Translations under genes and position numbers: made by a program
In this document: in pieces, positions 1-26,666 of the stretch
How positions within the stretch are numbered: position 1 is the first letter of the stretch
Layout: each line of letters begins with the position of its first letter
Source of the DNA: a virus
Lineage: Duplodnaviria > Heunggongvirae > Uroviricota > Caudoviricetes
Virus record (IMG/VR): IMGVR_UViG_2541047777_000012
Length of the DNA stretch: 38,285 nucleotides
Strand: one strand, 5' to 3'
Notes under the pieces: model-generated
What the model saw: only the letters and a program-made list of their open reading frames with translations
The model's database searches: none
Told to the model about the DNA's origin: nothing

Positions 1-2109
1 TTACACCATACTGTTAACCTGGCCGGGTAATTCGCTAGCTGGAATACGAAAGGTATACCAGGCATAACGACAGCGTTTCCACAGGCTGGAGAAATGGAGA
101 TGATAAAGGCAATCTGCAATAATTTCGTTATCTGGATATAAAGACTCGGCAAAATGTGTCCAGCGCGCACTGAGTTTCATGTTAAACAGTTTTTCATCTT
201 CTTTGTTACCATACAGGCGCGACAAAGTAATCATTGCTTCGAGCGTACCTTTATTCGCTTCTTCTTGTACCTGTTGGAGGTGCAAATGAGCAAGTGAGAG
301 TTCTTTCACCTCAAAGATATTAAGTAAAAAAAGCCCCCATGCTTTTTCATGTCCAGCTTCATGAGCCAGAAATAAATTGTCAAGGAGATTTTTTTCATAA
401 ATAGCCCGTGTTTCTTTAGAAATTTCTTGTTTATTTAGTGCCTGGTAGCAGATAGCAATGCTAAAATAAATATTTTGTAGATCTTGTTGATGTTCGCTAT
501 AACCATAATTTTTTACCAGTGGATAAGATACCGAGCTATGGAAATTTAGGTCATCTTGAAGTATTTTAAGTGCCCGTCGAAAATACTCCAAAGCTGTAGA
601 TGGTTCATAAGGTAATTTTGTATTGTCTTCCTTATCCAAATATTCAAGAGCAACTAAATTTAATGCGGCAGGAATATTTCTTTGCTTACCAATTGTCGCA
701 AGCGGAATGAAATAATCAGAAAGGTCAAACCAACTCAAATCTTTTATTGCCGACCGCCAATTATGATTGTATTTAATGTCACTAGCTTTTTCCAGCCAAG
801 CATCGCCCTGCCCTTCATCTTTTTCAAAACCCAAAATACCCTCTCGCTGGAAAAACCCCCTATAAATAACAGGTGTAGCATAAGTTGTATTCTGTGAATT
901 TTGGCAGATAAAATTATATATCCAGAATGAATCTGGATAATAACTTAATGCAAATTTTATCGCGTACGCAGTGTAATAATTATTGAGCTTCATGTCTTCC
1001 ATCACCGCTCGCTGTATACAGCACCACAACTTATCGTGATCGTTCTGCTTGTTATAGCAGGCAAGTAACCACTCTAGGGCATTATGGCGACATTCCTGAA
1101 ATTGTGCGTACTGAGCAATATTCTCTGCTAAGTCGATTGCATATTGTTGCTCCTCGGGCGCAATGTCCTCAATGCTGACATCTCGGTAATCATCCCACCA
1201 AAGTAAGAGATCCATATAGTCATGTTCTTCGGTAGATAAGTGCTTACAGGTTACTGAATCCAGCAATTCGGAAATTTCTTTATGCGACCCTCCCCAGCGT
1301 GGCATTCGAAATGGTATATATTCAACAAAAGGATAAAAAGTGTGAGGAAAAATAGTCAGGCAAACAGAAAGCCAATATTTTTGCCCACCATCATCATCAT
1401 ACTCAGGAAGTATATTGGGGCGAGGCAAAACGGGGCATATTGCATGCTCAAACGAAAGTCCGGAATACGCCATCAACGCTTCCACTTCTTGCGGGGAGCG
1501 GCGGTGATAATTTTTCAGTGCGATCATTAATGGTATTCCTGCGACACTATCACCGTTAAGGTGTGCCGCCAGCCAGGCTGGCTGACCAAATACTTTTGAG
1601 TTGGTGCTGGTAAGTAATGCAGCCATCCATTGTCGTGGGTCACAATCAATTGCTTTAAGTGTAGCGATGACCATTTGTTCATTACATGCACCAGCACAAA
1701 GCCACATTGCATGTGTGGTATCATTTGCCCAGCCATAACTGCGATATAACCATGCACGGTGATTCCAGTATTGTGCTTCGGCAAGCCAGGCATGTGTAGA
1801 ATGAGGTCTTGCTTGCTGCCAGGTTTTAATGAGTCTTAAACCTTCTGTTCCGGCATCAACTAGCGTGTTCATATCATAAAAATAGTTGCACATTTGGGTC
1901 CAGGATAAAAAATAGCGCTTTTCAGCCTGACGAGAAGTGAAACTCTCCTGTAATACCTGGTTATAAATTTCATCTAGTTCCTGATAACGTTTTTCTTGTA
2001 ACATATAAGGAATATTTGCGATTTGCCATTTTCTCTCAAGAGTATTAAGTGGCATTTTTTGGTCACACATCTTTTGCATTGCACTGAGTAAACGAGCATC
2101 CTGTTCCAT
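1..2109 (-). CDS. hypothetical large Trp/Tyr-rich protein, distal gene of an AT-rich three-gene operon (702 aa from the ATG at 2109; 715 aa if started at 2148)
   Basis: Uninterrupted minus-strand ORF ending with TAA at 1..3. The ATG at 2109 has AAAAGGA about 6 nt upstream and lies 10 nt after the stop of the preceding gene; the 2148 start overlaps that gene and has a weak RBS. No family recognised. Confidence 0.6.
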   Translation of the reverse strand: MEQDARLLSAMQKMCDQKMPLNTLERKWQIANIPYMLQEKRYQELDEIYNQVLQESFTSRQAEKRYFLSWTQMCNYFYDMNTLVDAGTEGLRLIKTWQQARPHSTHAWLAEAQYWNHRAWLYRSYGWANDTTHAMWLCAGACNEQMVIATLKAIDCDPRQWMAALLTSTNSKVFGQPAWLAAHLNGDSVAGIPLMIALKNYHRRSPQEVEALMAYSGLSFEHAICPVLPRPNILPEYDDDGGQKYWLSVCLTIFPHTFYPFVEYIPFRMPRWGGSHKEISELLDSVTCKHLSTEEHDYMDLLLWWDDYRDVSIEDIAPEEQQYAIDLAENIAQYAQFQECRHNALEWLLACYNKQNDHDKLWCCIQRAVMEDMKLNNYYTAYAIKFALSYYPDSFWIYNFICQNSQNTTYATPVIYRGFFQREGILGFEKDEGQGDAWLEKASDIKYNHNWRSAIKDLSWFDLSDYFIPLATIGKQRNIPAALNLVALEYLDKEDNTKLPYEPSTALEYFRRALKILQDDLNFHSSVSYPLVKNYGYSEHQQDLQNIYFSIAICYQALNKQEISKETRAIYEKNLLDNLFLAHEAGHEKAWGLFLLNIFEVKELSLAHLHLQQVQEEANKGTLEAMITLSRLYGNKEDEKLFNMKLSARWTHFAESLYPDNEIIADCLYHLHFSSLWKRCRYAWYTFRIPASELPGQVNSMV

Positions 2110-2119
2110 AGATATCCTT

Positions 2120-2836
2120 TTAATTAGGTTCAAAAATTTTAAATTCATTCCACGGCAATTTTTTCCAGTTACTGGATGGATCTTTCAACCATGCAGTGAC
2201 TTCCTTTAAATCACGGTTCGCAGTGGCGACGGGGGTATCGTATATCATTAACCATTTTTGTCGGGCGCGAACATAAGCACTGGCATAATCTTCCCATGAA
2301 GCGAAACAATCTTGTGCTCTTTGAGCATTCAGTAATAACACTATCCAGGCCTGGTTTTCATCGCACCAGCCTAAACCGGCGATGCAACGAGTTAAAAAAG
2401 CAGTGCGCATACAGTCAAACGCCAGCCCATCCAGAACCTGGCCTTGTGCTGCCAGTTGTTCGTAAAAATCATGTGGAGAATTACCAAGCCCTGTAGCCCA
2501 GCGCTGTAATATAACGCCAATTTGTTGACGGAAATCTTCGTTGCTTTGGTAAGTTTCTGTTCCTAGCTCTTGTTTAACCTGTAGTGCAAGTTGTTGACGC
2601 TTATCATCAGTCAACTTTAAATCTAACGTGAAGCCATTTACTGACAGTCCATTACGACGAGCAACTATATCACCAATTGCTAATGCCCACTTACGTCTCT
2701 TTGTTGCTCGTCTTTTGTCCTTGATTAGATCCTTTTCTTTTTCTTTAGCAATAAAAGCATCGATTTGTGGTTTGTTTTTTTTGTATCTATAGATAAAAAT
2801 AAATATTGCGACCAGGAGAACAATGATAAGACTCAT
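2120..2836 (-). CDS. hypothetical protein with one N-terminal transmembrane helix (238 aa)
   Basis: ORF with hydrophobic N-terminus (LIIVLLVAIFIFIY) followed by a basic stretch; its start overlaps the stop of the upstream 404-aa gene as ATGA, indicating translational coupling. AT-rich codon usage. Confidence 0.6.
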   Translation of the reverse strand: MSLIIVLLVAIFIFIYRYKKNKPQIDAFIAKEKEKDLIKDKRRATKRRKWALAIGDIVARRNGLSVNGFTLDLKLTDDKRQQLALQVKQELGTETYQSNEDFRQQIGVILQRWATGLGNSPHDFYEQLAAQGQVLDGLAFDCMRTAFLTRCIAGLGWCDENQAWIVLLLNAQRAQDCFASWEDYASAYVRARQKWLMIYDTPVATANRDLKEVTAWLKDPSSNWKKLPWNEFKIFEPN

Positions 2837-4050
2837 TATTTTTCAACCTCTGACAGGGGTAAGTAATGAGATGTCTGTAATGTCAAACTCTCTATCTCAA
2901 AGGAAATGTTGCTGATATTTTGACCTGCAAATTGCGGATGCCACTCAGCGCCAGGGAATAACATTTCCGCAGAAGTAGCAACTATAGGGTCAATAGCATT
3001 AAGATAATGTAACTTATCAGGTGCGCTGTGTAACAGTAACCACTGCAACTCCACTGAAGGATTTGTAAAATGTTCTAATAAATGAAAGTTATTATGTAGT
3101 ACGCTTAGTAAAAAACTGGTTTCGTATACTTCCGTTACATATTTCCACCCCTGATATTCAGGTGTATTTTCATAAACAATACCCATACCTTCACAATCAC
3201 TATGTCGAACTGCTTGTGGTGATAATAGTTGCAAAAGAGACAAAACATCGTCCGCATATTTTTTAACTGGATGACGATTTTGCTTACCTTTTATTTGATC
3301 AATTTCAAGTGAATCACCAACAACATTGAGAGCAATAGTAACATGAGGAATATTATTATTATCACGCAAACTGAATAACCGTAATTTATGTTGCTCAATT
3401 TGATTTGCATAATACTCACCATAACCACCGGTAAGATTTTTTCGATCATCAAACTGGCCTACGCAATGTTGCATATGCCATGATTCATAAGCCATTTCAC
3501 GACGAAGGTTCGAATGACTGGCATCAAACTCAACAATTTTTCCGTCTGGCACATCAAGTATTGACTTTACAGTATTTTGTTCACTCGGCTGCCACCCTTT
3601 CTCGCGTCGTTGAAGCATCTTTTCATGCTCTTCTTCACGCATTCTGAACGCAACGTAGCAGGTTATGCGCTGTAGTTTTGATTCCAGACGGGTACCACAT
3701 TTCCTGGAAAGAAATTCCACCAACTCCCGTTCTTTGGTTAATATTTGTTGATGATCGGTTTCGATATAATAAAGTGTCGCAGTTGATACTGAGGCAGTAT
3801 TAAACTTCGATACCAGCCATTCCGGGATTACATCATCATTTTTATTAAACAGTGAATATTCTGCAAGCGAGTTAATTTGTTGCACCATTGGAAAGTCACT
3901 AATTAGCCATCGATAAAAATGGTTGAGTAACCATTTTTGGATGGTCTCATTATCCTGGCGAAACAGACTTCTTTGCAAAATTGCTGTTTTTACTTCCGGG
4001 GCATTAATTACATCCCTTGCATTATAATTCTGGTGAATATTTCCAGTCAT
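2836..4050 (-). CDS. hypothetical protein (404 aa), first gene of the three-gene operon
   Basis: Long minus-strand ORF, AT-rich, divergent from yegQ. No convincing catalytic motif identified by eye. Confidence 0.6.
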   Translation of the reverse strand: MTGNIHQNYNARDVINAPEVKTAILQRSLFRQDNETIQKWLLNHFYRWLISDFPMVQQINSLAEYSLFNKNDDVIPEWLVSKFNTASVSTATLYYIETDHQQILTKERELVEFLSRKCGTRLESKLQRITCYVAFRMREEEHEKMLQRREKGWQPSEQNTVKSILDVPDGKIVEFDASHSNLRREMAYESWHMQHCVGQFDDRKNLTGGYGEYYANQIEQHKLRLFSLRDNNNIPHVTIALNVVGDSLEIDQIKGKQNRHPVKKYADDVLSLLQLLSPQAVRHSDCEGMGIVYENTPEYQGWKYVTEVYETSFLLSVLHNNFHLLEHFTNPSVELQWLLLHSAPDKLHYLNAIDPIVATSAEMLFPGAEWHPQFAGQNISNISFEIESLTLQTSHYLPLSEVEK

Positions 4051-4476
4051 AACATCCGCCCGTGTTTATTATATCACTCAAAGCAATAATTGTTGACTAT
4101 AGATTTTTTATCTAAATCAGCATGGTTGCAGGTACATACTCAAATGTCTTATATTTGCAGTTTATTTTAGTGAATAATTGAGATAAATGACATTATTTTA
4201 CATCCTCAATAATTCAGGCTGTAAGAGGACGGCAAATACATTCATAATTATCAGGGGATGAACATTCAGGAAAGTAGTCAGTATCGTCAACTTTTTCTTT
4301 TATCACTACATGAAGATTTCGTGTAGATACTCCCATCTCTGCCACTTCTCCCCTCACATTTACACTGGAGCTAAACCCGCCGATTGCGCTACAATGCCCG
4401 CCCTTAAAGTGGGGGCACTCCCCTAACCGCTTCATCAGGTGAAGCGGCTCTGACCTGTCATCAGAACGAGAGAATT

Positions 4477-5838
4477 ATGTTTAAACCGGAACTCCTTTCC
4501 CCGGCGGGAACGCTGAAAAATATGCGTTACGCTTTCGCTTATGGCGCAGATGCTGTTTATGCGGGCCAGCCGCGTTACTCCCTGCGTGTACGCAACAACG
4601 AATTCAACCACGAAAATCTTCAGCTCGGCATCAATGAAGCCCACGCGCTGGGGAAAAAGTTTTATGTCGTGGTCAACATTGCACCGCACAACGCCAAGCT
4701 GAAAACCTTTATCCGTGACCTGAAACCGGTGGTGGAAATGGGGCCGGATGCGCTGATTATGTCCGATCCAGGGCTGATTATGCTGGTGCGTGAACACTTC
4801 CCGGAAATGCCAATCCACCTCTCGGTACAGGCTAACGCCGTAAACTGGGCGACGGTGAAATTCTGGCAGCAAATGGGTCTGACCCGCGTGATCCTCTCTC
4901 GCGAACTGTCACTGGAAGAGATTGAAGAGATCCGCAATCAGGTGCCGGATATGGAGATCGAAATCTTCGTTCACGGCGCGCTGTGCATGGCCTACTCCGG
5001 TCGCTGCCTGCTCTCTGGCTATATCAACAAGCGCGACCCGAACCAGGGCACCTGCACCAACGCCTGCCGCTGGGAGTACAACGTCCAGGAAGGGAAAGAA
5101 GATGACGTCGGCAACATCGTACACAAGTACGAGCCGATTCCGGTGCAAAATGTTGAGCCGACGCTGGGTATCGGCGCGCCAACCGACAAAGTGTTTATGA
5201 TCGAAGAAGCCCAGCGTCCGGGCGAGTATATGACCGCGTTTGAAGATGAGCACGGCACTTACATCATGAACTCGAAAGATCTGCGCGCCATCGCCCATGT
5301 TGAACGCCTGACCAAAATGGGCGTGCATTCGCTGAAAATCGAAGGCCGTACCAAATCTTTCTACTATTGCGCACGCACCGCGCAGGTTTACCGTAAAGCT
5401 ATCGATGACGCCGCTGCGGGCAAACCGTTCGATACCAGCCTGCTGGAAACGCTGGAAGGTCTGGCGCATCGTGGCTATACCGAAGGTTTCCTGCGTCGTC
5501 ATACCCACGACGATTATCAGAACTACGAATACGGTTATTCGGTTTCTGACCGCCAGCAGTTTGTTGGTGAGTTTACCGGTGAGCGCAAGGGGGAGCTCGC
5601 GGCGGTAGCGGTGAAAAATAAATTCTCCGTTGGCGACAGCCTTGAGCTGATGACGCCGCAAGGCAACATTAACTTTACCCTTGAGCATATGGAAAACGCC
5701 AAAGGTGAAGCGATGCCGGTCGCACCAGGCGATGGTTATACTGTGTGGCTCCCGGTGCCGCAGGATCTTGAGCTAAATTACGCGCTGCTGATGCGTAATT
5801 TCTCCGGGGAAACCACGCGTAACCCCCACGGTAAGTGA
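4477..5838 (+). CDS. yegQ: peptidase U32 family protein YegQ (TrhP, tRNA hydroxylation protein)
   Basis: 453-aa translation recognised as E. coli YegQ (MFKPELLSPAGTLKNMRYAFAYGADAVYAG..., ends ...RNPHGK). Host-like GC and codon usage. Confidence 0.9.
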   Translation: MFKPELLSPAGTLKNMRYAFAYGADAVYAGQPRYSLRVRNNEFNHENLQLGINEAHALGKKFYVVVNIAPHNAKLKTFIRDLKPVVEMGPDALIMSDPGLIMLVREHFPEMPIHLSVQANAVNWATVKFWQQMGLTRVILSRELSLEEIEEIRNQVPDMEIEIFVHGALCMAYSGRCLLSGYINKRDPNQGTCTNACRWEYNVQEGKEDDVGNIVHKYEPIPVQNVEPTLGIGAPTDKVFMIEEAQRPGEYMTAFEDEHGTYIMNSKDLRAIAHVERLTKMGVHSLKIEGRTKSFYYCARTAQVYRKAIDDAAAGKPFDTSLLETLEGLAHRGYTEGFLRRHTHDDYQNYEYGYSVSDRQQFVGEFTGERKGELAAVAVKNKFSVGDSLELMTPQGNINFTLEHMENAKGEAMPVAPGDGYTVWLPVPQDLELNYALLMRNFSGETTRNPHGK

Positions 5839-5922
5839 TTAATTTCGATTATTTTTCCCGGATGGAAAATTCTTAGAAACCGATCACATACAGCTGCATT
5901 TATTAAGGTTATCATCCGTTTC

Positions 5923-6009
5923 GCTGAAAAACATAACCCATAAAATGCTAGCTGTACCAGGAACCACCTCCTTAGCCTGTGTAATCTCCCTTACACGGGC
6001 TTATTTTTT
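5923..6009 (+). ncRNA. cyaR: CyaR (RyeE) small regulatory RNA; its terminator stem and U-tract overlap the prophage att core
   Basis: 87-nt sequence gctgaaaaacataacccataaaatgctagctgtaccaggaaccacctccttagcctgtgtaatctcccttacacgggcttatttttt matches CyaR as I remember it. A tatcat -10 element lies at 5910..5915 and the RNA ends in a hairpin plus T-run. Confidence 0.85.
5983..6009. repeat. attL core, 27-bp P2-type attachment core (direct repeat of 37613..37639)
   Basis: aatctcccttacacgggcttatttttt is the reverse complement of the P2 att core AAAAAATAAGCCCGTGTAAGGGAGATT and recurs exactly at 37613..37639. Identity extends to 28 nt (5983..6010 and 37613..37640). Confidence 0.9.
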
Positions 6010-6077: not shown

Positions 6078-6103
6078 AAGCCCCTCGACTGAGGGGCTTC
6101 CTG
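6078..6103 (-). terminator. rho-independent terminator downstream of ogr
   Basis: On the minus strand a GC stem (agcccctc / gaggggct, loop agtc) is followed by TTTTTTG, directly after the ogr stop. Confidence 0.6.
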
Positions 6104-6110
6104 TTTGTAA

Positions 6111-6329
6111 TTACATCCACATAATTTGCTGCCCTGACGGCAACGGGTGCGGTCTTACGGCGTGGACTTCTCCCGGCTTCACGATGTATCGCTGTACCGA
6201 CTCATAAGTGATGAACGTGGCGCTGCAATTCACGTTCTGACACTGGTGATAACGCTCTTTTGTCGTGTCAGTGATATAGCGGCTTGTACGCGCATGTGCG
6301 GCATGCTGGCATAAAGGACAATGAAACAT
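6111..6329 (-). CDS. ogr: late gene transcriptional activator Ogr (zinc finger)
   Basis: 72-aa product MFHCPLCQHAAHARTSRYITDTTKERYHQCQNVNCSATF... with the CxxC...CxxxxC pattern. The internal ATG at 6329 was chosen over the longer 93-aa ORF. Confidence 0.9.
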   Translation of the reverse strand: MFHCPLCQHAAHARTSRYITDTTKERYHQCQNVNCSATFITYESVQRYIVKPGEVHAVRPHPLPSGQQIMWM

Positions 6330-6410
6330 CGCGAGCACCTCTTCCGGTTTTGTTGATGTTGCCATTTTAGTTAATTCATCCTTATAAAACAAACAGATAA
6401 ATAAAACACA

Positions 6411-7574
6411 TCACTCATCATCTTCTGTTTCGTACTCCACATCAGAAAGCCTTACCTCAAGCTCCAAAGACGTCGTGAAGCCGCTATTATTCAGAAAATG
6501 TGTCACCTTAGTGATTGTCCAGTCCTGCTCGTCTATGACGCGCTTAAAGCCTGACACTTTAACCGGTGTTTCCGTGTAAATATCTGCCCGACCGGTAGCC
6601 AGGCTGATGGAGAACTCCGCGACGCCCCGTTGCAGTTTGTCCCACTTAGCCTGAGCGGCGCGCATGGCCTGCGCTTTTGTGGCATATACCGTGGTCAGGG
6701 CAAAAACGTTGTCAGCCTCACCGGCCATGTATTCACCTTCGCGCGCTTCCGGTACTTTTGGCGCTTTCTTCTGCGTGACTGGTTTCGCTTTCGGGTGCTC
6801 CAGTGCGCGCAGGTGTTTCTCTTTCTTTTTGCGCTTCAGTTTTACCTTCTGCTTTTGTGGCTTCGGGTCTTTGGTGTGTAACCACTTTGCCGTTACGCCG
6901 GTATAGGCTCCACGGTCAGCAATCGCAAAATGATGGCGGTCGCCGTCGCTGCGGGTGATGGTAATCTGCGGGATTTTTTTACCGCTGGCCGTCACCCCCT
7001 GCCCCGCTTTGAGAAACAGCAGTTTTCCCATTTTTACCGACACCTCGCCGCCGTTGCGTTCAGCAAGGCGGGTCAGGAATTTTGCATCAGACTCCTGCGA
7101 CTGGTCGATGTGCGGGATTTTAATTCCGGCCAGTGACGGAGCGACACTGGCTTCCAGCCTGTTACGGGAGGCTATCGCCTCAACAATCGCACCGAGCGTG
7201 GTGTCATGCCAGGAGCCTTCCCGGCGGGAATTGAGCGTCCCGCGGAAATCTGCACTCCGGGCGCGGATGGTGACCACATCCGGCGCGCCCCGGTGTTCAA
7301 CCTCATCAACGGTGAATTTCCCTTTGCATACCAGGGCAAAACCTTTCCAGCCGATATACACCGTCAGGACAGCGCCACGAACCGGCAGCCCGACCTGCCC
7401 GTCGGCATCGTTCAGTTCAATATCAAGCTGGTCAGCTTCAAAGCCCCGGTTATCCGTCAGAGTCATGCTCATCAGACGGTCGCTGATATTGCCGGTAATA
7501 TCCCTGCTGTCGAGCATCAGCATGTAATCCGGCGTCAGCGTACTGCCTGCATCAAATGTCAGCGCATCCAGCAT
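6411..7574 (-). CDS. D: tail protein gpD (late control gene D)
   Basis: 387 aa, P2 gpD-like (MLDALTFDAGSTLTPDYMLMLDSRDITG...); position between ogr and U. Confidence 0.9.
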   Translation of the reverse strand: MLDALTFDAGSTLTPDYMLMLDSRDITGNISDRLMSMTLTDNRGFEADQLDIELNDADGQVGLPVRGAVLTVYIGWKGFALVCKGKFTVDEVEHRGAPDVVTIRARSADFRGTLNSRREGSWHDTTLGAIVEAIASRNRLEASVAPSLAGIKIPHIDQSQESDAKFLTRLAERNGGEVSVKMGKLLFLKAGQGVTASGKKIPQITITRSDGDRHHFAIADRGAYTGVTAKWLHTKDPKPQKQKVKLKRKKKEKHLRALEHPKAKPVTQKKAPKVPEAREGEYMAGEADNVFALTTVYATKAQAMRAAQAKWDKLQRGVAEFSISLATGRADIYTETPVKVSGFKRVIDEQDWTITKVTHFLNNSGFTTSLELEVRLSDVEYETEDDE

Positions 7575-8053
7575 TATCCCGCCCCCATCATACCTGTGAA
7601 TCTGGTCGCCAGACTGCCGGCCTTACCGATGAGCGATTCCGCCTGTTTACCAATATCGCCATAAAGCGCGGCCAGTGATTCATCAACGCGGGTGAGCGAC
7701 AGCGTAAAATCAATTTTCCGGGGTGTGCCGTCTGCAAAGAAAATACTCCCTGTTTCACTCACCCTGCTGATGACATACATACCGTAAATCATGCCGGTGC
7801 CATCCAGCAACGGCCACGCCCGGCCTTCCTCTGCCATCAGTCTGAGCGTGGTCATCGTCAGCTTGCCGCCGGTCAGTTCGGGATAAAGCACACCGGCAAG
7901 CGTGATGTTTTCCTCGCCCACACCGAGAAACTGAAAGGCATCCCGTTTACCGATACGGGAATTTGACGGCCAGCGATAATCTGATTCACGCTGCATGGTC
8001 TGGTGTGGCAGCGTCTGGCGCATAAAAACAAACATACCTAACGCGAGCATCAT
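7574..8053 (-). CDS. U: tail protein gpU
   Basis: 159 aa, same length and position as P2 gpU; start overlaps the D stop. Confidence 0.85.
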   Translation of the reverse strand: MMLALGMFVFMRQTLPHQTMQRESDYRWPSNSRIGKRDAFQFLGVGEENITLAGVLYPELTGGKLTMTTLRLMAEEGRAWPLLDGTGMIYGMYVISRVSETGSIFFADGTPRKIDFTLSLTRVDESLAALYGDIGKQAESLIGKAGSLATRFTGMMGAG

Positions 8054-8067
8054 TTTTCGTCACCTCC

Positions 8068-10515
8068 TTAACCGTCATGCATCATGCTGGCACGGGCGCG
8101 CGCACGTTTATCCCGCTCGTATTTTTCGAGCGCATCCTGTAACTGGCGGTCGAGCTGAGTCCCCGGCGCAGTACCGCCCGTCAGACTGATGTGATATTCG
8201 TTTTTACTCTGGTCCACATAAGAGCGGCCAGCCGGTGCCGTAACCGGCTGATAAGCCTGATAGCCTGCATAAGAGCTGGTCGCCGGAATATAACCACCGG
8301 TGCCATACGTGGCGGCATGAGTTCTGGCGGCGGTCTGGTCAAGCGTGCCTGACTCTTTGTTGATAACACCGAGTTTTTCCAGTACCCAGTCAATACCGCT
8401 GCGCAGTTTGTTGAACGCATTAAGCGGCAGCATCAACGCGTCAGCCAGTGCCTGCCCGAACATGACGCCCGTATCACGGCAACGGTTCAGGGTGTCCCGG
8501 GTGGCTTTGACCGGGGCAATCAGGTTTTTAAACCACTGCCACGCGGCCTGTAACTTTTCGCCCAGCCAGTCAAACACCGGCTTAAGTGGCGTGAACAGTT
8601 CCCCCACCGGCGCAAATGCCGCTTTCAGCCCTTCAACCACACCGCCAAAGAATGCGCTGACAGGCTCCCAGTATTTACGGATAAGTAACGCCCCGGCGAC
8701 AATGGCGGCCACCACGGCCACAACCGGCCAGCTAATCGCCCCGATGGCCGTCATAACAGCACTGCCAACCGTCGTGAAGATTGCTCCCATTGCGCCTGCT
8801 GCCGCGATGATGGCATTGATGCCGGTGATAACCGGCCAGGCTACGAGGCCAATGGCACCGATGACACCAATCAGTGCCAGTGCACCACCGACAATGATGC
8901 CGATGGTTGACGCCAGTGATTTGTTTTTCTGTATCCAGCCGTCGAGTTTTAACACATACTTTGTGGCCGTCTGCGTGAGCTTACGCAGTGCGCCTTCCTG
9001 CTGGTCAAACAGGTCAGTCCCCACCGCCTCATAAGCGGACTGAAACTCCTTAAAGTCACCGCCGAGGTTGTCCTGCATGATATTTACCAGCTCGGCGGTC
9101 TTCCCGTCTGAGGCTTTAAACGCAGCGGTCAGTTTGTCCAGCTTTCCAGTTGAGGCGGCAGTCATCAGCACGGCGGCGGCTGAGCTGGCCTCCTCCCCGA
9201 AAATAGTTTTCATGTATTCAGCCTGCTGGGCAGTACCGAGCCGGTTTTTCTCAAAACTGGCCTGCATTTCTTTCAGAATGGTAAATACTGGTCGAGTATT
9301 CCCTTTACTGTCTGAGGTTTTCACGCCAAGCTCTTTCAGTGCATCCCATGCTTTTCCCGTCGGTGCCTGCAGGCGGCTTAACACGGCACGGCTTCCCGTC
9401 CCCGCCATTGAACCGGTAATTTTTGCATCATGCAGCGCCCCGACCATTGCGGCGGTTTCTTCAATGCTGACACCGGCATTTTTTGCCACTGGTGCGGCAT
9501 AGGTCAGCGCATCGCTCATACCGTCAAAATCGGCGGCGGTTTTGTTCATCGTCATGGAGAGAACATCCCCGATATGAGCGACCTTATCGTTTGAAAGCTG
9601 AAAGGCGGATTTCATCCCCATCAGCAGGGCGGCGTTTTCTTCCATCGTGCGACGGTTCGCCAGCGCCATATTCAGCGTGACCGGCGTTGCCGCCTGAATG
9701 GCATCAACATCCCCACCGGCTTTCGCAATAATAATCTGCGCACCGGCTGCATCATCTGCCGAGGCTGCGGTATTGTCGCCGAGCTGGCGCGCCTGCTTGC
9801 GTAGTGCAGCCATTTCGGCGGAGTCTTTTGCCACACCGAGCACGGCCTGCAATTCTGAGTTTTTCTGCGCAAACTCATAACCGGGCATCAGCAACTTAAC
9901 TCCGGCCATCGTTCCCGCAGCAGCAATCCCCACACCGGCAGCGCCCACTGAGGCCATATTTCCGGCCAGTTCCTTTCCGGCCTGATAACGCTGTTTTACT
10001 GCGTTAAGTTTTGCCTGTTGTGCACTGACACGCGCCAGCGCGTCACGCTGACGGTTAAGCTGTGCGGTGGTTTCACTGATACGGTTTTTCAGTCCCTGCT
10101 CATCATGTGCAAGATTGCGGGTATTAATTCCCACAGCGGCCAGTTCCCGCTGCTGGCGTTTAATGGAATCTGTCAGGCGGTTATATTTCGCCTGTAAGTC
10201 CTCCGCCGCACGCTTTGCGGATTCCAGCACTTTCGCCTGAGCACGGGTCGGACGTTCAGTGTTTTTAAACTGTGTGGCAAGGGCTTCGGCTTCCTGCCGT
10301 GCCTTTTCAAGTGCATGACCAGTCACGGCAAGCTGTGCGCTGGTCTTGCGAAATCCCTCAATACGGGATGCGTGACCGTTCAGCTCGCGCAGTGATTTTT
10401 GTGTTTCCCGGATATCCCCCGACAGCGACTTACTCGCTGTGCGGATGGATTTAAACGGGCGGGATGCCTGGTCAACAGCCCTGAGCAATACCTGTAATTT
10501 TACATTGTTACTCAT
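8068..10515 (-). CDS. T: tail tape measure protein gpT
   Basis: 815 aa, Ala/Gly-rich with coiled-coil N-terminal part and hydrophobic central segments, located between E/E' and U. Confidence 0.9.
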   Translation of the reverse strand: MSNNVKLQVLLRAVDQASRPFKSIRTASKSLSGDIRETQKSLRELNGHASRIEGFRKTSAQLAVTGHALEKARQEAEALATQFKNTERPTRAQAKVLESAKRAAEDLQAKYNRLTDSIKRQQRELAAVGINTRNLAHDEQGLKNRISETTAQLNRQRDALARVSAQQAKLNAVKQRYQAGKELAGNMASVGAAGVGIAAAGTMAGVKLLMPGYEFAQKNSELQAVLGVAKDSAEMAALRKQARQLGDNTAASADDAAGAQIIIAKAGGDVDAIQAATPVTLNMALANRRTMEENAALLMGMKSAFQLSNDKVAHIGDVLSMTMNKTAADFDGMSDALTYAAPVAKNAGVSIEETAAMVGALHDAKITGSMAGTGSRAVLSRLQAPTGKAWDALKELGVKTSDSKGNTRPVFTILKEMQASFEKNRLGTAQQAEYMKTIFGEEASSAAAVLMTAASTGKLDKLTAAFKASDGKTAELVNIMQDNLGGDFKEFQSAYEAVGTDLFDQQEGALRKLTQTATKYVLKLDGWIQKNKSLASTIGIIVGGALALIGVIGAIGLVAWPVITGINAIIAAAGAMGAIFTTVGSAVMTAIGAISWPVVAVVAAIVAGALLIRKYWEPVSAFFGGVVEGLKAAFAPVGELFTPLKPVFDWLGEKLQAAWQWFKNLIAPVKATRDTLNRCRDTGVMFGQALADALMLPLNAFNKLRSGIDWVLEKLGVINKESGTLDQTAARTHAATYGTGGYIPATSSYAGYQAYQPVTAPAGRSYVDQSKNEYHISLTGGTAPGTQLDRQLQDALEKYERDKRARARASMMHDG

Positions 10516-10935
10516 TCGTGTTTCCGCTTCGCCGGAGCGCCTTTTCGCGCCATGTGATGAGTTCGGTCAGGCTCATGGGATACAGTTCTGATGGCGGCCA
10601 GTGAAATATCACTGCCACATCCGCCATCAGGTCATCGACCGAGAGATTTTTCGGGAACGTTACTGCACCGAGTTCGGCGACAAAAAACCGACCACCTTAC
10701 CGGCCAGCGCCACAAGGTCAGGCAGTTCCAGCGCGGCGACTTCCTGCTCGGTCAGCATCGGTGCCGTCATGCGCGGCAGCACCTTAATCAGTGCATCGAC
10801 TTCGGAGTTCGCGACCGCAGCCAGACTGACACCGCGCAGCGTCCCGGCATTAGGTTTCATCAGCGTGACCTGTTCGATAACCTGCTCACCACGCTTGACC
10901 GGATTGTCCAGGGTAATCACATTTTCTTTGTTCAT
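10508..10935 (-). CDS. E': gpE+E', predicted -1 programmed frameshift product of the tail chaperone (about 142 aa)
   Basis: From the TTTTTTG slippery site (plus coordinates 10681..10687) the -1 frame stays open to a TAA at 10508..10510, overlapping the T start as in P2. I translated this frame by hand. Confidence 0.7.
10660..10935 (-). CDS. E: tail assembly chaperone gpE
   Basis: 91 aa, same length as P2 gpE; contains the slippery run GGTTTTTTG near its 3' end. Confidence 0.85.
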   Translation of the reverse strand: MNKENVITLDNPVKRGEQVIEQVTLMKPNAGTLRGVSLAAVANSEVDALIKVLPRMTAPMLTEQEVAALELPDLVALAGKVVGFLSPNSVQ

Positions 10936-10991
10936 GGTTTTCTCACTTCTGAATCGGGGTTAACCGGTCAGCCAGGCTGACCGGATGAAAA

Positions 10992-11510
10992 TCACAGGCC
11001 GATATTGCGGCGGTGTTGCTCCAGCCGGTCGACGCCGTTCACCTTCTCAATCATGTTGATGGTGTCGATTTCGACCAGCTCCTTACCGTCCATCGTCAGC
11101 CGGAAATAGGTGCAGACCACGGAGATTTTCGACTCGGTGTCTTCTCCCTGTTTGCCCTCGCCGGTGTCGATTTCTTTCTGACGTCCACGCATGACCACCT
11201 CGACGGCCACCGTTTCGCCGGTATCGTCGCGCTGGTAAGAGCCTGCAAAACGAATCGGTACGGAATCCACACCGGTTGCGGCGTAAAGCTCCCAGATAAC
11301 CGAATCCGGGAAGCCACCGAGCGACCACTCCATTGACAGCGCATCGTCATCAAGGCCGAGGTCTACCGGTGCGCTGCCGTTCATCCCCGCACCGCGATAG
11401 TTTTCGAGCTTACGGGTCAGTTTTGGTAGCGTGACGGACTTCGCGACGCCCTGATAGCTGTAGCCGTTCAGAAAGACGTTCATTAACTTGAGTTTGCGCG
11501 GCATTGCCAT
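10992..11510 (-). CDS. FII: tail tube protein gpFII
   Basis: 172 aa, P2 FII length and position. Confidence 0.9.
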   Translation of the reverse strand: MAMPRKLKLMNVFLNGYSYQGVAKSVTLPKLTRKLENYRGAGMNGSAPVDLGLDDDALSMEWSLGGFPDSVIWELYAATGVDSVPIRFAGSYQRDDTGETVAVEVVMRGRQKEIDTGEGKQGEDTESKISVVCTYFRLTMDGKELVEIDTINMIEKVNGVDRLEQHRRNIGL

Positions 11511-11522
11511 CGGTCAGGCTCC

Positions 11523-12713
11523 TTAATTGCTGTTAACCGAGGTGACCAGATTTGCCAGGTATTTATCGGTAATACGCTGGCGCAGGGTCAGGTTTTCAAG
11601 AGGAGGCACCGGTGTATAGTCGTAGTCGATATACAGTTTTCCGGCCTTGAGGGTTTCCGCATCGTTGGATTCTTCGCTGAACCAGCAGGTCGCATCCACG
11701 ATATAGCCGTTTGTTTTCAGCTCACGGAATTTGGCATTGATGCCGTCAACGATGTCGCGAATCAGCGTTGCGGTGATGGGCTTGTCCACCGCCCACATGT
11801 GCGCCTCAGCCATCGTATCGGCCAGCACCTGCGCGGTGCGGGTGTAGTTTTCAAAGAGGAAAAGCGGGTCATCAGAGCAGGTACGGTTACCCCAGAATCG
11901 GAAACCGTCACGGCGAATCAGCGTAGTGATGCCTGACTCGTTAAGCAGGTCAGCATCGGTGCCGGACTCCTGCAAATCCCAGAATACAGATGCGCTGATG
12001 CCGGTAACACCGTTCACCCCGACATTGGACAGTGTTTTATGCCAGCCCTGCTCCTGGTCGATTCTGGCACGCAGACCCAGCGCACGGGCGGTGGCATACG
12101 CGGTGGCGGTGGTGCTGGTGACCGTATCCCATGCGAGGAAATCCGGCCAGATGACCATCAGCTCACGCTGGCTGAAATTCTGGCGGTAGGCTTTCACCTC
12201 GGAAATGGTCTTACAGCCCCATGCGCTGATATACCCGAAAGCGCGCAGCTTCTGACAGACGGATACCAGTGCAACAGCCACCTCTTTGGTGTCCAGTCCC
12301 GGCACACCGAGAATACGCGGTTTAACACCGGTTACCGACTCCGCCGCCAGCAGGGCTTTCAGTCCGGTGTACTGACCGTTTTCGTCGGTAGTGCCGATGA
12401 TATTGGAAACGGTCTGCGCGAGTTTCGTTTCCTCGTCGTCGCCGGTGCCGTCTTCCACACGCACGACAACGGTGACCGGTTTTGACTGGTCGGCGATGGC
12501 CTGCAACGATGCCGCCAGCGTGCCTTTTTTACCGGCCTTTGCAATTGCGCTCTGCACATTGGTTATCAGCACCGGTTTATTGAGGGGGAAGGTTTCCGCA
12601 TCCGCATCGCTGGCCGTGCAGACCATGCCGACAATGGCCGTGGATACGGTGGAAATGACGCGGGTGCCGTCGTTAATCTCCAGCACCTGCACGCCGTGAT
12701 GATAGTCACTCAT
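11523..12713 (-). CDS. FI: contractile tail sheath protein gpFI
   Basis: 396 aa, P2 FI length and position (MSDYHHGVQVLEINDGTRVISTV...). Confidence 0.9.
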   Translation of the reverse strand: MSDYHHGVQVLEINDGTRVISTVSTAIVGMVCTASDADAETFPLNKPVLITNVQSAIAKAGKKGTLAASLQAIADQSKPVTVVVRVEDGTGDDEETKLAQTVSNIIGTTDENGQYTGLKALLAAESVTGVKPRILGVPGLDTKEVAVALVSVCQKLRAFGYISAWGCKTISEVKAYRQNFSQRELMVIWPDFLAWDTVTSTTATAYATARALGLRARIDQEQGWHKTLSNVGVNGVTGISASVFWDLQESGTDADLLNESGITTLIRRDGFRFWGNRTCSDDPLFLFENYTRTAQVLADTMAEAHMWAVDKPITATLIRDIVDGINAKFRELKTNGYIVDATCWFSEESNDAETLKAGKLYIDYDYTPVPPLENLTLRQRITDKYLANLVTSVNSN

Positions 12714-12817
12714 CCGTTTAACTCCGTGGTTAATGGGTGCAACTATTTTCTGTTGTGCAGAGTATGAGGCGCTATTTGACCTGGCTGGTCAGTGGATGAA
12801 ACAACAGATAAAGAAAA

Positions 12818-12836
12818 GGCGGGCAATTCGCCCGCC
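12818..12836 (-). terminator. GC-rich hairpin with a T-rich tract on the minus strand, between the cargo gene and FI
   Basis: ggcgggc-aatt-gcccgcc stem-loop; on the minus strand it is followed by ttttctttatct. Confidence 0.4.
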
Positions 12837-13113
12837 TGTCCTGATTTGTACTCACTCATTTTCCGCCTGACAATTTACATAGCCCAAATGCTATCAAATC
12901 TGACAGCCTGCTTTGAGCGAGTAACTAAATTTGATTTAAATAAATTATAAGGATTCAAATGTTATTGGCACAAATTCCTGAGATGCAAACAGTCACACTA
13001 AGTGTTCAAACAAGGTTCTGGACTACGGCTAACTCATCAGTTAAGTTTGTTTCCGACCTGTCGTTTCTTCCCTGTCAGGAGTCACTTTTCGTGTTATTTT
13101 TTAAGGATGTTTT

Positions 13114-13893
13114 ATGAGTAATGAAACACAATCATTCCTTAGTCAATTGCTAATATCCATAATCTCTATATCTTTAGGGTCATTTCTTTTTGCTGGAATC
13201 CTAGAGAGCTACAAAAAAGACCCAGATCTTCAGGAGGAGTTTATAAAGGATTACTTTAGGCCAATGATGAAATTACAAAGTTCTTGTTCATCTTCACATA
13301 ATGAACTATTTCTAAAGTATGGAGAGTTATCTGCTTCTTATCAGCTCATGTATAATGAAATAGTACATATGGCAATGAGCCCTGATTCAGAATTAGGACA
13401 ACATTATGAAGTTCTCCCGATGTCTCTTATTAAAACAAATGAAGAGTTAAAAAAAAGAGTTGAAGATCTTGAAATGACGGTAAAAAAATGCAATATCGAT
13501 TTATTCCTTAAGTACGAAGAGCTTGCATTAGTTACTGGTTCATATCCAGAGTTTAAGAGGCTGGCGAAAAAACACACTGACACAATTAACTCCATCTATT
13601 CAGAAAGACAAAAAAAAGCAAAGGGAAATGCAAAAAATATAGACCCTGATCAACTAATTCCATTGATGCGGAAATATATTGCCATGGATCCACACACCAA
13701 TGTAAACAAATCCATGCTTGCCAGTGAAATTGATAACATATCTAAACTAACAACACAGCATAATTTGATAATGGCAGAATATGAGGAGTTAATTTTCAAA
13801 GAAGATAATGATTTATTTATAACTCTTCATGATCTTTATGCAATCAAAATTAGTGAAAAGTATTCAGGTGGATTTATCAGTTGGATATTTTAA
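13114..13893 (+). CDS. hypothetical membrane-anchored protein (259 aa) occupying the P2 Z/fun cargo position; candidate exclusion or abortive-infection factor
   Basis: AAGGA RBS 5 nt upstream of the ATG; a single N-terminal hydrophobic helix (LLISIISISLGSFLFAGIL) followed by a Lys/Glu-rich soluble region. Clearly AT-rich, and convergent with the flanking late genes. Confidence 0.7.
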   Translation: MSNETQSFLSQLLISIISISLGSFLFAGILESYKKDPDLQEEFIKDYFRPMMKLQSSCSSSHNELFLKYGELSASYQLMYNEIVHMAMSPDSELGQHYEVLPMSLIKTNEELKKRVEDLEMTVKKCNIDLFLKYEELALVTGSYPEFKRLAKKHTDTINSIYSERQKKAKGNAKNIDPDQLIPLMRKYIAMDPHTNVNKSMLASEIDNISKLTTQHNLIMAEYEELIFKEDNDLFITLHDLYAIKISEKYSGGFISWIF

Positions 13894-14044
13894 AACATGA
13901 TAACTCATCAGATACAATGCTAACTATGTAGAACGCGTAAATCTGTGAAGGTTACCAATGTGTTAGGTAATGTCCGCTCCTTGCACAGAGCGGACTGTCA
14001 GATTAGGCTTTACTCTGTGCTATAGATATGTCAGCTCATACAAC

Positions 14045-14572
14045 TTATTGCGGCATTTCCGGCCATTCAGGATTTGCAGGATCCACACGGCTGACCAGAA
14101 CACTGTAGCGTTCCCATGCTTCCAGTCGGCTACGCTCCTCATCTGTTGCCATGTTCAGCCTGACAGCGCGCTCCAGTGGCTGAATAACGCTTTCCGCTTC
14201 GGAAAGTAACGCGGCCTTTTGTGATTCTGCCTGTTGTTGCTGTTCGTCTGCCGTATAAATCCGCTTAATCACGGCACCATCCTTAAACATCCATTTACCT
14301 GAGTCATCAGCACGTCGGTTGGCGGTAATATCAGGAACCTCGACAACGTTAAAACCTTCAGGGTTAAGCGTTGAAGCATCTCTGGTGATGCCGACAATTA
14401 TATTATTCTCGTCGTAAACAATCTTTATCGTGTCTTCCTGAAAATTACTTACTTCCTCATACCAGTTTTTTCCCTCTTCGGACCATAACCAGATAACATC
14501 AAAATTTTTTGTCAGTTGATATTGGGCAACAGTTTTTGGATTACCCGCAGTAATATTTTTTAAATGCTGCAT
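14045..14572 (-). CDS. G: tail fibre assembly protein gpG
   Basis: 175 aa, P2 gpG-like (MQHLKNI...[12 protein letters not shown]). Confidence 0.9.
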
Positions 14573-14575
14573 AAA

Positions 14576-16870: not shown

Positions 16871-16880
16871 TATTCCTCAC

Positions 16881-17408
16881 TTATCCGGGGTAAACCGTAA
16901 TTACATCGCCGTCGTAAGCCACACCACCGGCGAACAGATAGCCGGGAATGTCCCGGGTAATGTTCAGGCCAATAAGGTGGCGGCTTGCAGGTTTGGCATC
17001 GGCAATCAGCCGTTCCATTTCCTGATACATTGCCTCTGTGATACCGCTTTCCAGTACACCAATATCAAGCCGGAAGGTGCCGGGCGGGTCACTGTTTTCC
17101 CACCACTCCGTCACGTTGATGAGATAGCCGAGCGGCTCCACCACACGCCGGATTGCACCTATAGTGCCTTTATGACAGTGGATGAAATACGCATCGCGGA
17201 TAACGGCGCGTTTTATCGCTTCCGGCCACTTTTCATCCCACCTGTCGACCGAAAACGCCCACGCCAGCCACGGCAGCAGATTTGCCGGACAGGTGTTCGG
17301 GTTCCACAGTTCACGAATACTGACCGGCGTTTTTTCAATTTCCGCACAGGCTTTTGCGGCAGCAATTTCAAGCGGTGATGAGCCGGTCGGCAGCAGGCGC
17401 TCACTCAT
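16881..17408 (-). CDS. I: baseplate protein gpI
   Basis: 175 aa, position and size as P2 gpI. Confidence 0.85.
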   Translation of the reverse strand: MSERLLPTGSSPLEIAAAKACAEIEKTPVSIRELWNPNTCPANLLPWLAWAFSVDRWDEKWPEAIKRAVIRDAYFIHCHKGTIGAIRRVVEPLGYLINVTEWWENSDPPGTFRLDIGVLESGITEAMYQEMERLIADAKPASRHLIGLNITRDIPGYLFAGGVAYDGDVITVYPG

Positions 17409-18309
17409 CCGAGCCTCCGGTCACGACGCGGTATTCGGTACAGAAAGACGCCTGCGTACTGTTGAGCACAATGTCGGCCAGTGGTGCGGCCAGCTCGACA
17501 CGCTGCACGCCTTCCACATGCAAAGCGGCATAAATGGCAGACAGACGGATGTCGCGCCCAAGCCGGTGCTGTGCCGTGATGTACGCTTCCAGTTTTTTCA
17601 CGGCGGCAGCGCGTATGGGTTCGCTTTCGGGACCAGGGTAAAGGTAAAGCGTGGCGTTTATCTGGTATTCAACGATGGCGGCAGACTGCACGGTCACGCG
17701 GTCGGCCACCGGCCTGACGTCCTCGCCATTAAGGGCGTTACGCACCACCGCCAGCAGGTCTTCGGATGCGACACCGTTATTTTCACGTGACAGCACAGAG
17801 ATGGTGACGCAGGCCGGAGACGGACTGGTGACAGAGATATCCGCGACACGCCCGTCGGCACTGCGACCATGATACTGATAAGCTCCCACCGACCCGGCGA
17901 CGCTTAAGCCTTCAAACGCCTGCTGAATACGCAGCCGGTAATCGGTGTCAGACTCCATCACTGCCGGTGTCGGCGGGATAGTCGAATCATCTGCCGGGGT
18001 GATAATCAGGCGCGTGGTGTTGTAATTGGCACCAATCACATCAAGGTCATTACCGGCAGCACAGGCCAGCATCACCGCCCGTGCGGCCTCATTCACACGC
18101 TGACGCCAGATAAGCTCACGATAAGCATTTTCCTCCAGCAGTTTGACGAGAGGCTCAGATTCCAGCGTCAGGGTAAGGGCGACCGCCTCCTGCTGGTCTT
18201 CCGGGTAAAGGGAAATCAGTGTCGCCTTGCGTTCGGCAAGAATGGTTTCAAAGTCCAGCTCCTCAACCACATCCGGTGCGGGTAGCTGGTTCAGGTCGAT
18301 AATCGGCAT
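17401..18309 (-). CDS. J: baseplate wedge protein gpJ
   Basis: 302 aa, as P2 gpJ. Confidence 0.9.
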   Translation of the reverse strand: MPIIDLNQLPAPDVVEELDFETILAERKATLISLYPEDQQEAVALTLTLESEPLVKLLEENAYRELIWRQRVNEAARAVMLACAAGNDLDVIGANYNTTRLIITPADDSTIPPTPAVMESDTDYRLRIQQAFEGLSVAGSVGAYQYHGRSADGRVADISVTSPSPACVTISVLSRENNGVASEDLLAVVRNALNGEDVRPVADRVTVQSAAIVEYQINATLYLYPGPESEPIRAAAVKKLEAYITAQHRLGRDIRLSAIYAALHVEGVQRVELAAPLADIVLNSTQASFCTEYRVVTGGSDE

Positions 18310-18313
18310 GGTT

Positions 18314-18661
18314 TCAACTCACAGGGATGGTTAACGAAAGTGGCTGGCCGGTGTCGTTGTGCTGGCCGGTTAACGTGACCGTCATTCGCCCGTCAAAGCT
18401 GCGCTCAGTGATGACGGATGACAGGGTGACGCGGGGTTCCCATTTCAGCACCGCCATGTAACAGGCGACCTTAATCTGCAACTCAAGCGCCGGGGTCTGC
18501 GGCTGGTCAATCATTGACGCCAGCAACGAGCCGTAATCTCGACGCATCACCCGTGAGCCGACCGGTGTGCGCAGGATATCGCCGATACTCTGGCTGATAT
18601 GCTCAAGGTCAGTGACAGTCAGGCCATCACTGCGATTCATTCCGAGATAACGCGCAGTCAT
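18314..18661 (-). CDS. W: baseplate protein gpW
   Basis: 115 aa, as P2 gpW. Confidence 0.9.
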   Translation of the reverse strand: MTARYLGMNRSDGLTVTDLEHISQSIGDILRTPVGSRVMRRDYGSLLASMIDQPQTPALELQIKVACYMAVLKWEPRVTLSSVITERSFDGRMTVTLTGQHNDTGQPLSLTIPVS

Positions 18662-19293: not shown

Positions 19294-19393
19294 AACGGGA
19301 AGGATGCCGCTAGTTTACACTAGCGGCAAATTTTGATGCTTTGGTGAGGTATGATACAACAGACTACATTCCCCCCCTCAAATAAATCACAAT

Positions 19394-20746: not shown

Positions 20747-20756
20747 ACAAAAACCT

Positions 20757-21296: not shown

Positions 21297-21311
21297 TTGT
21301 ACTTTACCTTC

Positions 21312-23179: not shown

Positions 23180-23193
23180 GGTGTTTACTCCGT

Positions 23194-23972: not shown

Positions 23973-23975
23973 GCG

Positions 23976-24688: not shown

Positions 24689-24787
24689 GACTACCTCTGA
24701 AAAGTCGGGCGGTGGACGCCGGTGCAGTGTCAGGTGATTCACCCTCACTGACCGGCGTGCCGCCCTGGCGCGGGGCGCATTCGGTTG

Positions 24788-25531: not shown

Positions 25532-25534
25532 CGG

Positions 25535-26608: not shown

Positions 26609-26666
26609 AGTTTTTCCTGAAATTAATGGTTAATCGTGAAGGTTTTCCCGGACTGACTGACGCCGG

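Follow-up and report, generated by a model that had tools for sequence, protein, structure and literature searches.

The 38,285-nucleotide stretch of DNA deposited as virus record IMGVR_UViG_2541047777_000012 (below, the window) begins with three closely spaced minus-strand genes next to yegQ, which encode a PcfJ-like protein, a DUF1266 protein and a DUF4034 protein. We are confident that these genes, here called the triad, are a conserved three-part unit, and that in Escherichia coli this unit is carried by an accessory islet in the gap between yegP and yegQ. Much more tentatively, we propose that the three proteins may form a membrane-tethered transferase complex.

The operon starts with the gene for the PcfJ-like protein (2836..4050, minus strand, 404 aa), the candidate catalytic subunit. 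On the same strand follow the gene for the DUF1266 protein (2120..2836, 238 aa), a candidate membrane tether or regulatory subunit, and the gene for the DUF4034 protein (1..2109, 702 aa), a candidate helical-repeat scaffold or recognition subunit, whose stop codon forms bases 1-3 of the window. An earlier inspection of the letters alone (below, the sequence-only reading) had listed three minus-strand genes of 404, 238 and about 702 aa, and all three were confirmed as open reading frames (ORFs). The first junction, at 2836, had been described as an ATGA overlap, but the actual sequence is GAA AAA TAATG AGT, with a single base shared by the stop codon TAA and the start codon ATG. At the second junction (TAA-aaggatatct-ATG), the 10-nt gap that had been noted is indeed present, at 2110..2119. 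An alternative in-frame ATG at 2148 would lengthen the DUF4034 protein to 715 aa. The start at 2109 was preferred because it agrees both with RefSeq and with the Shine-Dalgarno sequence AAGGA located 7 nt upstream.

Across Beta- and Gammaproteobacteria, the triad genes stay together on one strand without interruption, in either of two gene orders. In a scan of one genome per species, relatives of the PcfJ-like protein were found in 191 species (at least 191 for the trio in Beta- and Gammaproteobacteria), with homologues in Klebsiella, Salmonella, Serratia, Burkholderia, Variovorax, Pseudomonas, Trinickia, Lysobacter and others. We fetched 80 loci and typed them with profiles built from our own alignments. 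A DUF1266 gene immediately follows the PcfJ-like gene on the same strand in 79 of them, including 5 in which the two are fused. A large partner is present in 73 of the 80 loci, either downstream (36 loci, the DUF4034 protein) or upstream (37 loci), and is truncated by the contig end in 4 further loci. The upstream type of large protein has 530-880 aa (at least 750 aa in 36 of 37 cases) and ends in TPRs. It is homologous to DUF4034 proteins according to hhalign (probability 99.7%, E-value 5.9e-26 over 541 columns). When all other neighbors in the 80 loci were clustered, none was found to be conserved across more than six genera.

Gene fusions point in the same direction. Lysobacter, Rhizobium rhizogenes and others encode PcfJ::DUF1266 fusion proteins of 600-690 aa. 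A single protein of 774 aa (P0222), alone among housekeeping genes, combines PcfJ, DUF1266 and TPR regions, and another of 830 aa (P0232) joins a PcfJ-like region (profile match with E-value 9.6e-44) to TPRs. Some apparent PcfJ::DUF1266 fusions (P0095, P0112, P0196, P0211, P0214) retain a transmembrane (TM) helix between the two domains. They are possibly read-through or sequencing artefacts of the stop/start overlap, and therefore only fusions that lack the TM helix and occur in several genera were relied upon. P0135 was considered as a DUF1266::DUF4034 domain fusion and rejected, since an in-frame deletion has joined two genes in this case. The DUF4034 gene of Klebsiella oxytoca NBRC 105695 (L015:11916-14033) is split into parts of 349 and 291 aa, by pseudogene formation or by a sequencing error. 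The genus Burkholderia has the triad in two forms. In form 1 (L024-L043), the order is PcfJ-DUF1266-DUF4034 and the PcfJ-like protein is 44-51% identical to its E. coli counterpart; in form 2 (L073, L079, L084, L092), the large protein is encoded upstream and the identity is 35-36%. These forms may be two paralogous lineages of the module that separated long ago.

The triad is carried by chromosomes or very large replicons, and not by phages or by plasmids typed as mobilizable. A tblastn search against 50,697 phage records detected no copy, and among 72,556 plasmid records only 8 matched, all of them replicons of 0.3-1.3 Mb that are typed as non-mobilizable.

In E. coli, the distribution is patchy. 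Counting as islet-bearing every genome that holds at least 80% of window positions 1..4476, we found the islet in 298 of 5,426 complete genomes (∼5.5%), including UTI89, S88, LF82 and Nissle; it is not a feature conserved in most E. coli genomes. Apart from one 61-bp gap, positions 1..4476 are identical to UTI89, S88, IHE3034, LF82, NU14, ATCC 11775 and others, and all three ORFs of the window are intact and 100% identical across the best 25 matching genomes. The GC content is 0.33-0.45 across positions 1..4200 versus 0.52-0.56 in yegQ, and 0.40 for the whole islet versus 0.52 for its flanks. Between E. coli on one side and Klebsiella, Salmonella and a Salmonella-like contig on the other, the triad proteins share 60-66% identity, compared to 93-97% for the products of the adjacent baeR and yegQ genes. 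Rarity, composition and a protein divergence far above that of the flanks bear out the view that an accessory module was inserted next to yegQ, and the islet was probably acquired horizontally.

Comparison with other E. coli strains delimits the site. In UTI89, the gene order is baeR, yegP (plus strand), a gene for a 201-aa hypothetical protein, the DUF4034, DUF1266 and PcfJ-domain protein genes (all minus strand) and yegQ (plus strand). The sequence-only reading had located the triad where yegP would be expected and had considered a substitution. However, yegP is intact in UTI89 directly to the left of the islet. As it lies about 0.8 kb beyond window base 1, after the fourth islet gene, its apparent loss is an artefact of the window edge. 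The gap between yegP and yegQ measures 21 bp in K-12 and 5,202 bp in UTI89. The islet thus comprises about 5.2 kb in UTI89 and is 61 bp shorter in the strain of the window, which holds its right-hand 4.4 kb. Its left edge, outside the window, directly follows a stem-loop-like sequence 3′ of yegP. Its right edge is at 4385/4386, and the window is identical to K-12 from GCGCTACAATG onward (both edges by comparison with K-12). The contrast between AT-rich DNA and a host-like yegQ region had been recognized before, although the boundary had been set too far to the left, at about 4320. Beyond the islet, the core chromosome continues with the leader of yegQ/trhP (4386..4476, plus strand) and yegQ itself (4477..5838, plus strand).

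The gap is a variable site with three alleles. It is empty in 3,183 genomes (judged by a contiguous match to a K-12 probe spanning the gap), filled by a parD/parE toxin-antitoxin pair in 1,844, and occupied by the islet in those counted above; by subtraction, about 100 genomes carry other content. With E. coli C21 (L096:11395-11989) as the parDE reference, a three-way alignment with K-12 and the window identified a left frame of about 65 bp (outside the window) and a right frame of 30 bp (4356..4385) that the parDE and islet alleles share. K-12 lacks both, and the two insertions are therefore alternative cargos within one frame. They sit in exactly the same gap but are unrelated in gene content, size and protein families. 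The UTI89 annotation shows neither an integrase nor a transposase between yegP and yegQ, and the ends of the islet are the frame sequences common with the parDE allele rather than direct repeats, although no formal repeat search was run.

In several enteric genera the triad is resident, whereas the E. coli copy is divergent, AT-rich, inverted and patchy. Salmonella (STM2133-STM2135), Klebsiella, Citrobacter and Buttiauxella have the same families in the same internal order, with equally tight junctions and with DUF1266 and DUF4034 proteins of 238 and about 703 aa. In these genera and in locus L014, the triad is located between baeR and yegQ on the same strand, in contrast to the opposite orientation in E. 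coli. No yegP is called between baeR and the triad at the enteric loci outside E. coli, and their GC content is 0.49-0.53, compared to 0.40 for the E. coli islet. The Salmonella orthologue has been described as a conserved gene that precedes a variable islet, with STM2135 termed "a gene of unknown function" (PMC7400221). The seemingly truncated N-terminus of a Salmonella PcfJ-like protein (P0019, 294 aa) was dismissed as a gene-calling artefact, because the full ORF is intact in one frame.

The PcfJ-like protein, named "PcfJ domain-containing protein" in RefSeq, passes the threshold for the Pfam family PcfJ (PF14284) only just (26.2 bits versus a cut-off of 25, E-value 7.5e-6), with residues 141-268 aligned to profile positions 30-145 of 147. 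Its family profile reaches 2,134 cluster representatives, among them a protein of 1,691 aa that combines InPase and PcfJ domains, an architecture that we take to be typical of polyvalent proteins of mobile elements. The protein of the window itself belongs to a tight chromosomal subfamily of 50 representatives (E-value at most 1e-30). PcfJ of the Enterococcus plasmid pCF10 is in the same Pfam family, but the subfamily of the window is chromosomal and linked to DUF1266 and DUF4034/TPR proteins. In the papers we found that mention PcfJ, no function is given for it.

An AlphaFold2 model of the PcfJ-like protein (pLDDT 88.3) consists of a helical N-terminal domain, an alpha/beta core at about residues 155-305 and a helical C-terminal domain. 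Foldseek returned nothing with an E-value of 1e-3 or better for this model. Nearly all of its top 50 entries, all below significance, belong to the GNAT superfamily (ESCO1, YhbS, RibT, SpeG, L/F-transferase, FemX), and the core aligns best, if weakly, with GNAT-fold enzymes by two methods. The most conserved peptide of the family, Q252-I-K-G-K-Q-N-R, is located between a strand (247-254) and a helix (263-276). Its residues Q252, K254, G255, K256, Q257 and N258 are invariant, as are E185, E189, H195 and C196 elsewhere in the protein, and all invariant residues are retained in the window. In GNAT enzymes, motif A lies between a strand and a helix and binds the pyrophosphate of the coenzyme A (CoA) moiety of acyl-CoA. 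The PcfJ-like core has an invariant glycine-containing loop at what may be the corresponding place, and it is this combination of a GNAT-like core and a conserved peptide in the strand-to-helix loop that makes the PcfJ-like protein our candidate for the catalytic subunit.

The middle protein matches DUF1266 (PF06889) with 68.7 bits against a threshold of 27 (E-value 9.5e-19). The N-terminal membrane anchor that the sequence-only reading had ascribed to it was found at residues 2-16 (Kyte-Doolittle value 2.09). This TM helix is followed by a linker rich in lysine and arginine and by the DUF1266 domain. The model (pLDDT 84.4) is all-alpha, with a long N-terminal helix. The TM helix and the basic stretch are present in 26 of 28 unfused DUF1266 homologues and absent from the clean fusions. 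An H-NS-repressed DUF1266 gene has been reported in strain 042 (EC042_RS03510; PMC7582179). It was not mapped; we guess that it lies elsewhere, perhaps at ybeR or ybeU, and have not used it.

The large protein contains a full-profile match to DUF4034 (PF13226) at residues 43-319 (339.7 bits versus 21.3, E-value 1.7e-101) and a putative segment of Sel1-like repeats at about residues 413-530. Family profile positions 413-528 match solved Sel1-repeat proteins in the PDB with E-values down to 5e-16, and no other PDB match was obtained. The DUF4034 protein of the window taken alone has no Pfam Sel1 match at an E-value of 1 or better, whereas PF08238 is carried by more distant DUF4034 homologues. 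The abundance of tryptophan and tyrosine that had been noticed earlier is real (3.4% and 6.3%, together 9.7% of residues). DUF1266 and DUF4034 were also examined as possible relatives of each other, and this was rejected (hhalign probability 0.2%). For the PcfJ-like and DUF1266 proteins, neither the sequences nor the family profiles matched any PDB entry. An NCBIfam search with the three proteins yielded only a sub-threshold match, and none of them (404, 238 and 702 aa) matches a toxin-antitoxin family in Pfam or NCBIfam.

How the three proteins might work together can be sketched as follows. They would form one complex on the cytoplasmic side of the inner membrane, to which the DUF1266 protein would tether the assembly by its N-terminal helix. 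The DUF4034 protein, of Sel1/TPR type, would serve as a scaffold or as the subunit for target recognition. The PcfJ-like protein would be the catalytic subunit with a GNAT-type fold, and its QIKGKQNR loop would take the position at which the pyrophosphate of acyl-CoA is bound. An acyl or aminoacyl group might then be transferred onto a protein or onto an envelope-related target. The pairing of a GNAT-like core with a Sel1/TPR partner is reminiscent of eukaryotic NatA, a GNAT enzyme that works with a helical-repeat scaffold. As a mechanism, such a membrane-tethered transferase complex with a helical-repeat scaffold is the reading that we favor over the others, although we give it less than even odds.

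Several observations weigh against it. The physical interaction of the three proteins is inferred from fusions and synteny only, and no ligand, target or phenotype is known for the triad. Membrane tethering cannot be universal, as the genuine fusions P0090 and P0103 have no TM helix. In the PcfJ-like protein, QIKGKQ departs from the motif A consensus Q/R-x-x-G-x-G/A at position 6, where it has glutamine instead of glycine or alanine; motif A was mapped by secondary structure only, and beyond helix 263-276, the secondary structure elements do not follow the canonical GNAT succession. A PDB search established no sequence-level link between the PcfJ-like protein and GNATs. Finally, a 61-bp deletion upstream of a promoter-like site (see below) makes expression of the operon in this particular strain uncertain.

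A comparison with K-12 suggests a different way of looking at the triad. Next to the Hsp70 gene hscC, K-12 has a cluster of ybeQ (Sel1), ybeR (DUF1266), djlB (J domain), ybeT (Sel1), ybeU (DUF1266) and djlC (J domain). Our DUF1266 profile matches YbeU (E-value 1e-8) and YbeR (2e-6), and positions 420-520 of our DUF4034 profile match the Sel1 repeats of YbeQ (3e-12); YbeT was matched as well. As in the islet, each DUF1266 protein has a Sel1-repeat protein as its companion and shows translational coupling to a third partner, so that the DUF1266/Sel1 pairing recurs with different third partners, a J-domain co-chaperone with Hsp70 in the ybe clusters and the PcfJ-like protein in the islet. The K-12 Sel1 proteins differ in being smaller (184-325 aa), in lacking a DUF4034 domain and in being divergently transcribed. 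The triad could accordingly be read as a non-catalytic adaptor or proteostasis module, with a generic DUF1266/Sel1 adaptor pair and a PcfJ-like protein that binds rather than catalyzes. The two K-12 arrangements, the matches of our profiles to YbeU, YbeR and YbeQ, and the weakness of the GNAT similarity are in line with this idea. Nevertheless, we consider it unlikely. The concentration of many invariant polar residues in one loop and one helix of the PcfJ-like protein is typical of an active or ligand-binding site, the TM helix of the islet DUF1266 protein is missing from YbeR and YbeU, and the analogy explains little as long as the ybe cluster is itself uncharacterized (no function is reported in the literature for any of its genes).

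An anti-phage or conflict role, in which the Sel1/TPR protein would serve as the sensor of an invader, the PcfJ-like protein would be a GNAT-type, toxin-like effector (acting for example on tRNA or a translation component) and the DUF1266 protein would regulate or localize it, seems equally improbable to us. The points in its favor are circumstantial. Besides the patchy distribution in E. coli and the low GC content, they include the fast evolution of the triad relative to the flanking core genes, which is seen even when Klebsiella is compared with Salmonella (74-82% versus 92-94% identity), the parDE pair as the alternative occupant of the site, and the presence of a PcfJ domain in the InPase protein of 1,691 aa among the distant relatives. 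GNAT-fold toxins such as TacT and AtaT also exist. Yet PADLOC-DB 2.0.0, against which the sequence-only reading had suggested checking the operon, contains no matching model apart from a partial PDC-S32 match to 81 residues of the DUF4034 protein (E-value 1.3e-3); nothing was matched by the PcfJ-like protein, the DUF1266 protein or the fourth islet gene. PHROGs likewise gave no match with an E-value below 0.03. Moreover, as detailed above, there is no phage copy and only eight large, non-mobilizable "plasmids" carry the triad, and no defence genes recur as neighbors in the 80 loci. The GC content of the triad is close to that of the flanks in Burkholderia and Lysobacter and above it in Salmonella and Pseudomonas. 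Several enteric genera keep the triad between baeR and yegQ, and conservation has been noted for the Salmonella gene (PMC7400221).

This same position next to baeR raises the question of a link to envelope stress, with a complex that would modify an envelope or efflux target under BaeR control as part of the BaeSR/MdtABCD response. In Klebsiella, Citrobacter, Buttiauxella, Salmonella and L014, the genes immediately after mdtBCD-baeSR, on the same strand, are those of the triad; a Burkholderia triad follows the operon of a resistance-nodulation-division (RND) pump, and a Lysobacter triad is located between creD and a two-component system; the predicted membrane anchor of the DUF1266 subunit would also fit. 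In E. coli, however, the operon is inverted and has its own putative promoter region, and yegP and one more gene stand between it and baeR. Neighboring efflux or two-component genes do not recur beyond Burkholderia and the enterics, and we find this link quite unlikely. Still less probable, in our opinion, is that the islet of E. coli is a silent or decaying acquisition, silenced by an H-NS-type mechanism and without current function. AT-rich sequence, the upstream 61-bp deletion (apparently unique to the window among the genomes listed) and the lack of a reported phenotype in the literature would agree with such a fate, but the three ORFs are intact and identical across the best 25 genomes, all family-invariant residues are kept, and the deletion leaves the core promoter-like site intact.

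Measured against characterized systems, the triad could not be assigned to any. Hundreds of RefSeq genomes list its genes under DUF names, and our literature search turned up no description of the trio, of its fusions or of a function, except for an entry in a Salmonella motility screen, where deletion of STM2133 gave a swarming value of 1.55±0.46, within noise (PMC4219756). Returning to the transferase complex, a more far-reaching version would make the triad an undescribed three-component machine of Beta- and Gammaproteobacteria, with a divergent GNAT-like catalytic subunit, a conserved His-Cys pair and a modification new to bacteria, a role in defence or conflict or in the modification of envelope proteins or lipids, and a DUF1266 plus Sel1/TPR pair that is a reusable adaptor shared with the HscC/DjlB/DjlC cluster. 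This version is rather doubtful in its entirety. Taken as a whole, our findings amount to a well-delimited, testable hypothesis and not to a discovery. Should the trio turn out to be an enzyme complex, PcfJ, DUF1266 and DUF4034, families that are catalogued but unstudied, would gain their first function. The triad, which is fixed in Salmonella and Klebsiella, also occurs in E. coli of extraintestinal, adherent-invasive and probiotic types (UTI89, S88, LF82, Nissle 1917), and its function could help to explain the DUF1266 and Sel1 genes bordering the K-12 HscC chaperone system. Independently of function, the three-allele map of the yegP-yegQ gap should be useful for pangenome and strain-typing work.

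The islet-specific region upstream of the operon (4051..4355, minus strand) contains a promoter-like site, with a -35 hexamer TCAACA from 4096 and an extended -10 element TG-TATAAT ending at 4068. It has 10 of 12 consensus matches and a TG before the -10 hexamer; 3 such sites were found versus 1.7±1.1 in shuffled sequences, a weak excess. Alignment with UTI89 places the breakpoint of the 61-bp deletion at 4143/4144, about 50 bp upstream of the -35 hexamer and without evident microhomology. The 61 bp are present in all 12 islet-bearing genomes among the matches listed (295 genomes match), where a 101-bp query spans 162 bp in two pieces.

The sequence-only reading had also suspected that the cluster might continue to the left of the window. 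This is the case for one further gene, within about 0.75 kb. The gene (UTI89 L001:13335-13940, minus strand), located 60 bp beyond window base 1, encodes a protein of 201 aa whose N-terminus resembles a signal peptide or a lipobox (..LPANAGC..) and which has no Pfam, PHROG or PADLOC match. At loci of the Salmonella type, a different secreted protein of 237-239 aa is encoded after the DUF4034 gene, which is not homologous to the E. coli protein according to BLAST.

On the other side of yegQ, most of the window is taken up by a complete P2-like prophage (about 6100..37600), integrated just after cyaR (Rfam CyaR, 5921..6006). It extends from ogr (6111..6392) and gpD (6411..7574) on the yegQ side to an ORF of integrase size (36520..37533). 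At this position, K-12 retains just a remnant, ogrK/yegZ, and UTI89 has no prophage. Within the prophage, beside the gpV spike gene (18658..19293), there is a Pycsar anti-phage system (19394..21296, minus strand), a system of a known kind. It consists of the PycC cyclase (19394..20782, minus strand, 462 aa; PADLOC PycC with E-value 1.3e-128, Pfam Guanylate_cyc and AGS_C) and the PycTM effector (20757..21296, minus strand, 179 aa; PADLOC PycTM with E-value 7.6e-29), and its GC content is 0.35-0.39, compared to about 0.56 in the surrounding prophage. A cargo spot between tail genes (13114..13893, plus strand), presumably the Z/fun-type hotspot of P2, is occupied by an ORF for 259 aa with a GC content of 0.35 and no Pfam or PADLOC match. 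A second AT-rich spot of the prophage (30800..31700, GC content 0.40) precedes the large replication gene (31678..33996).

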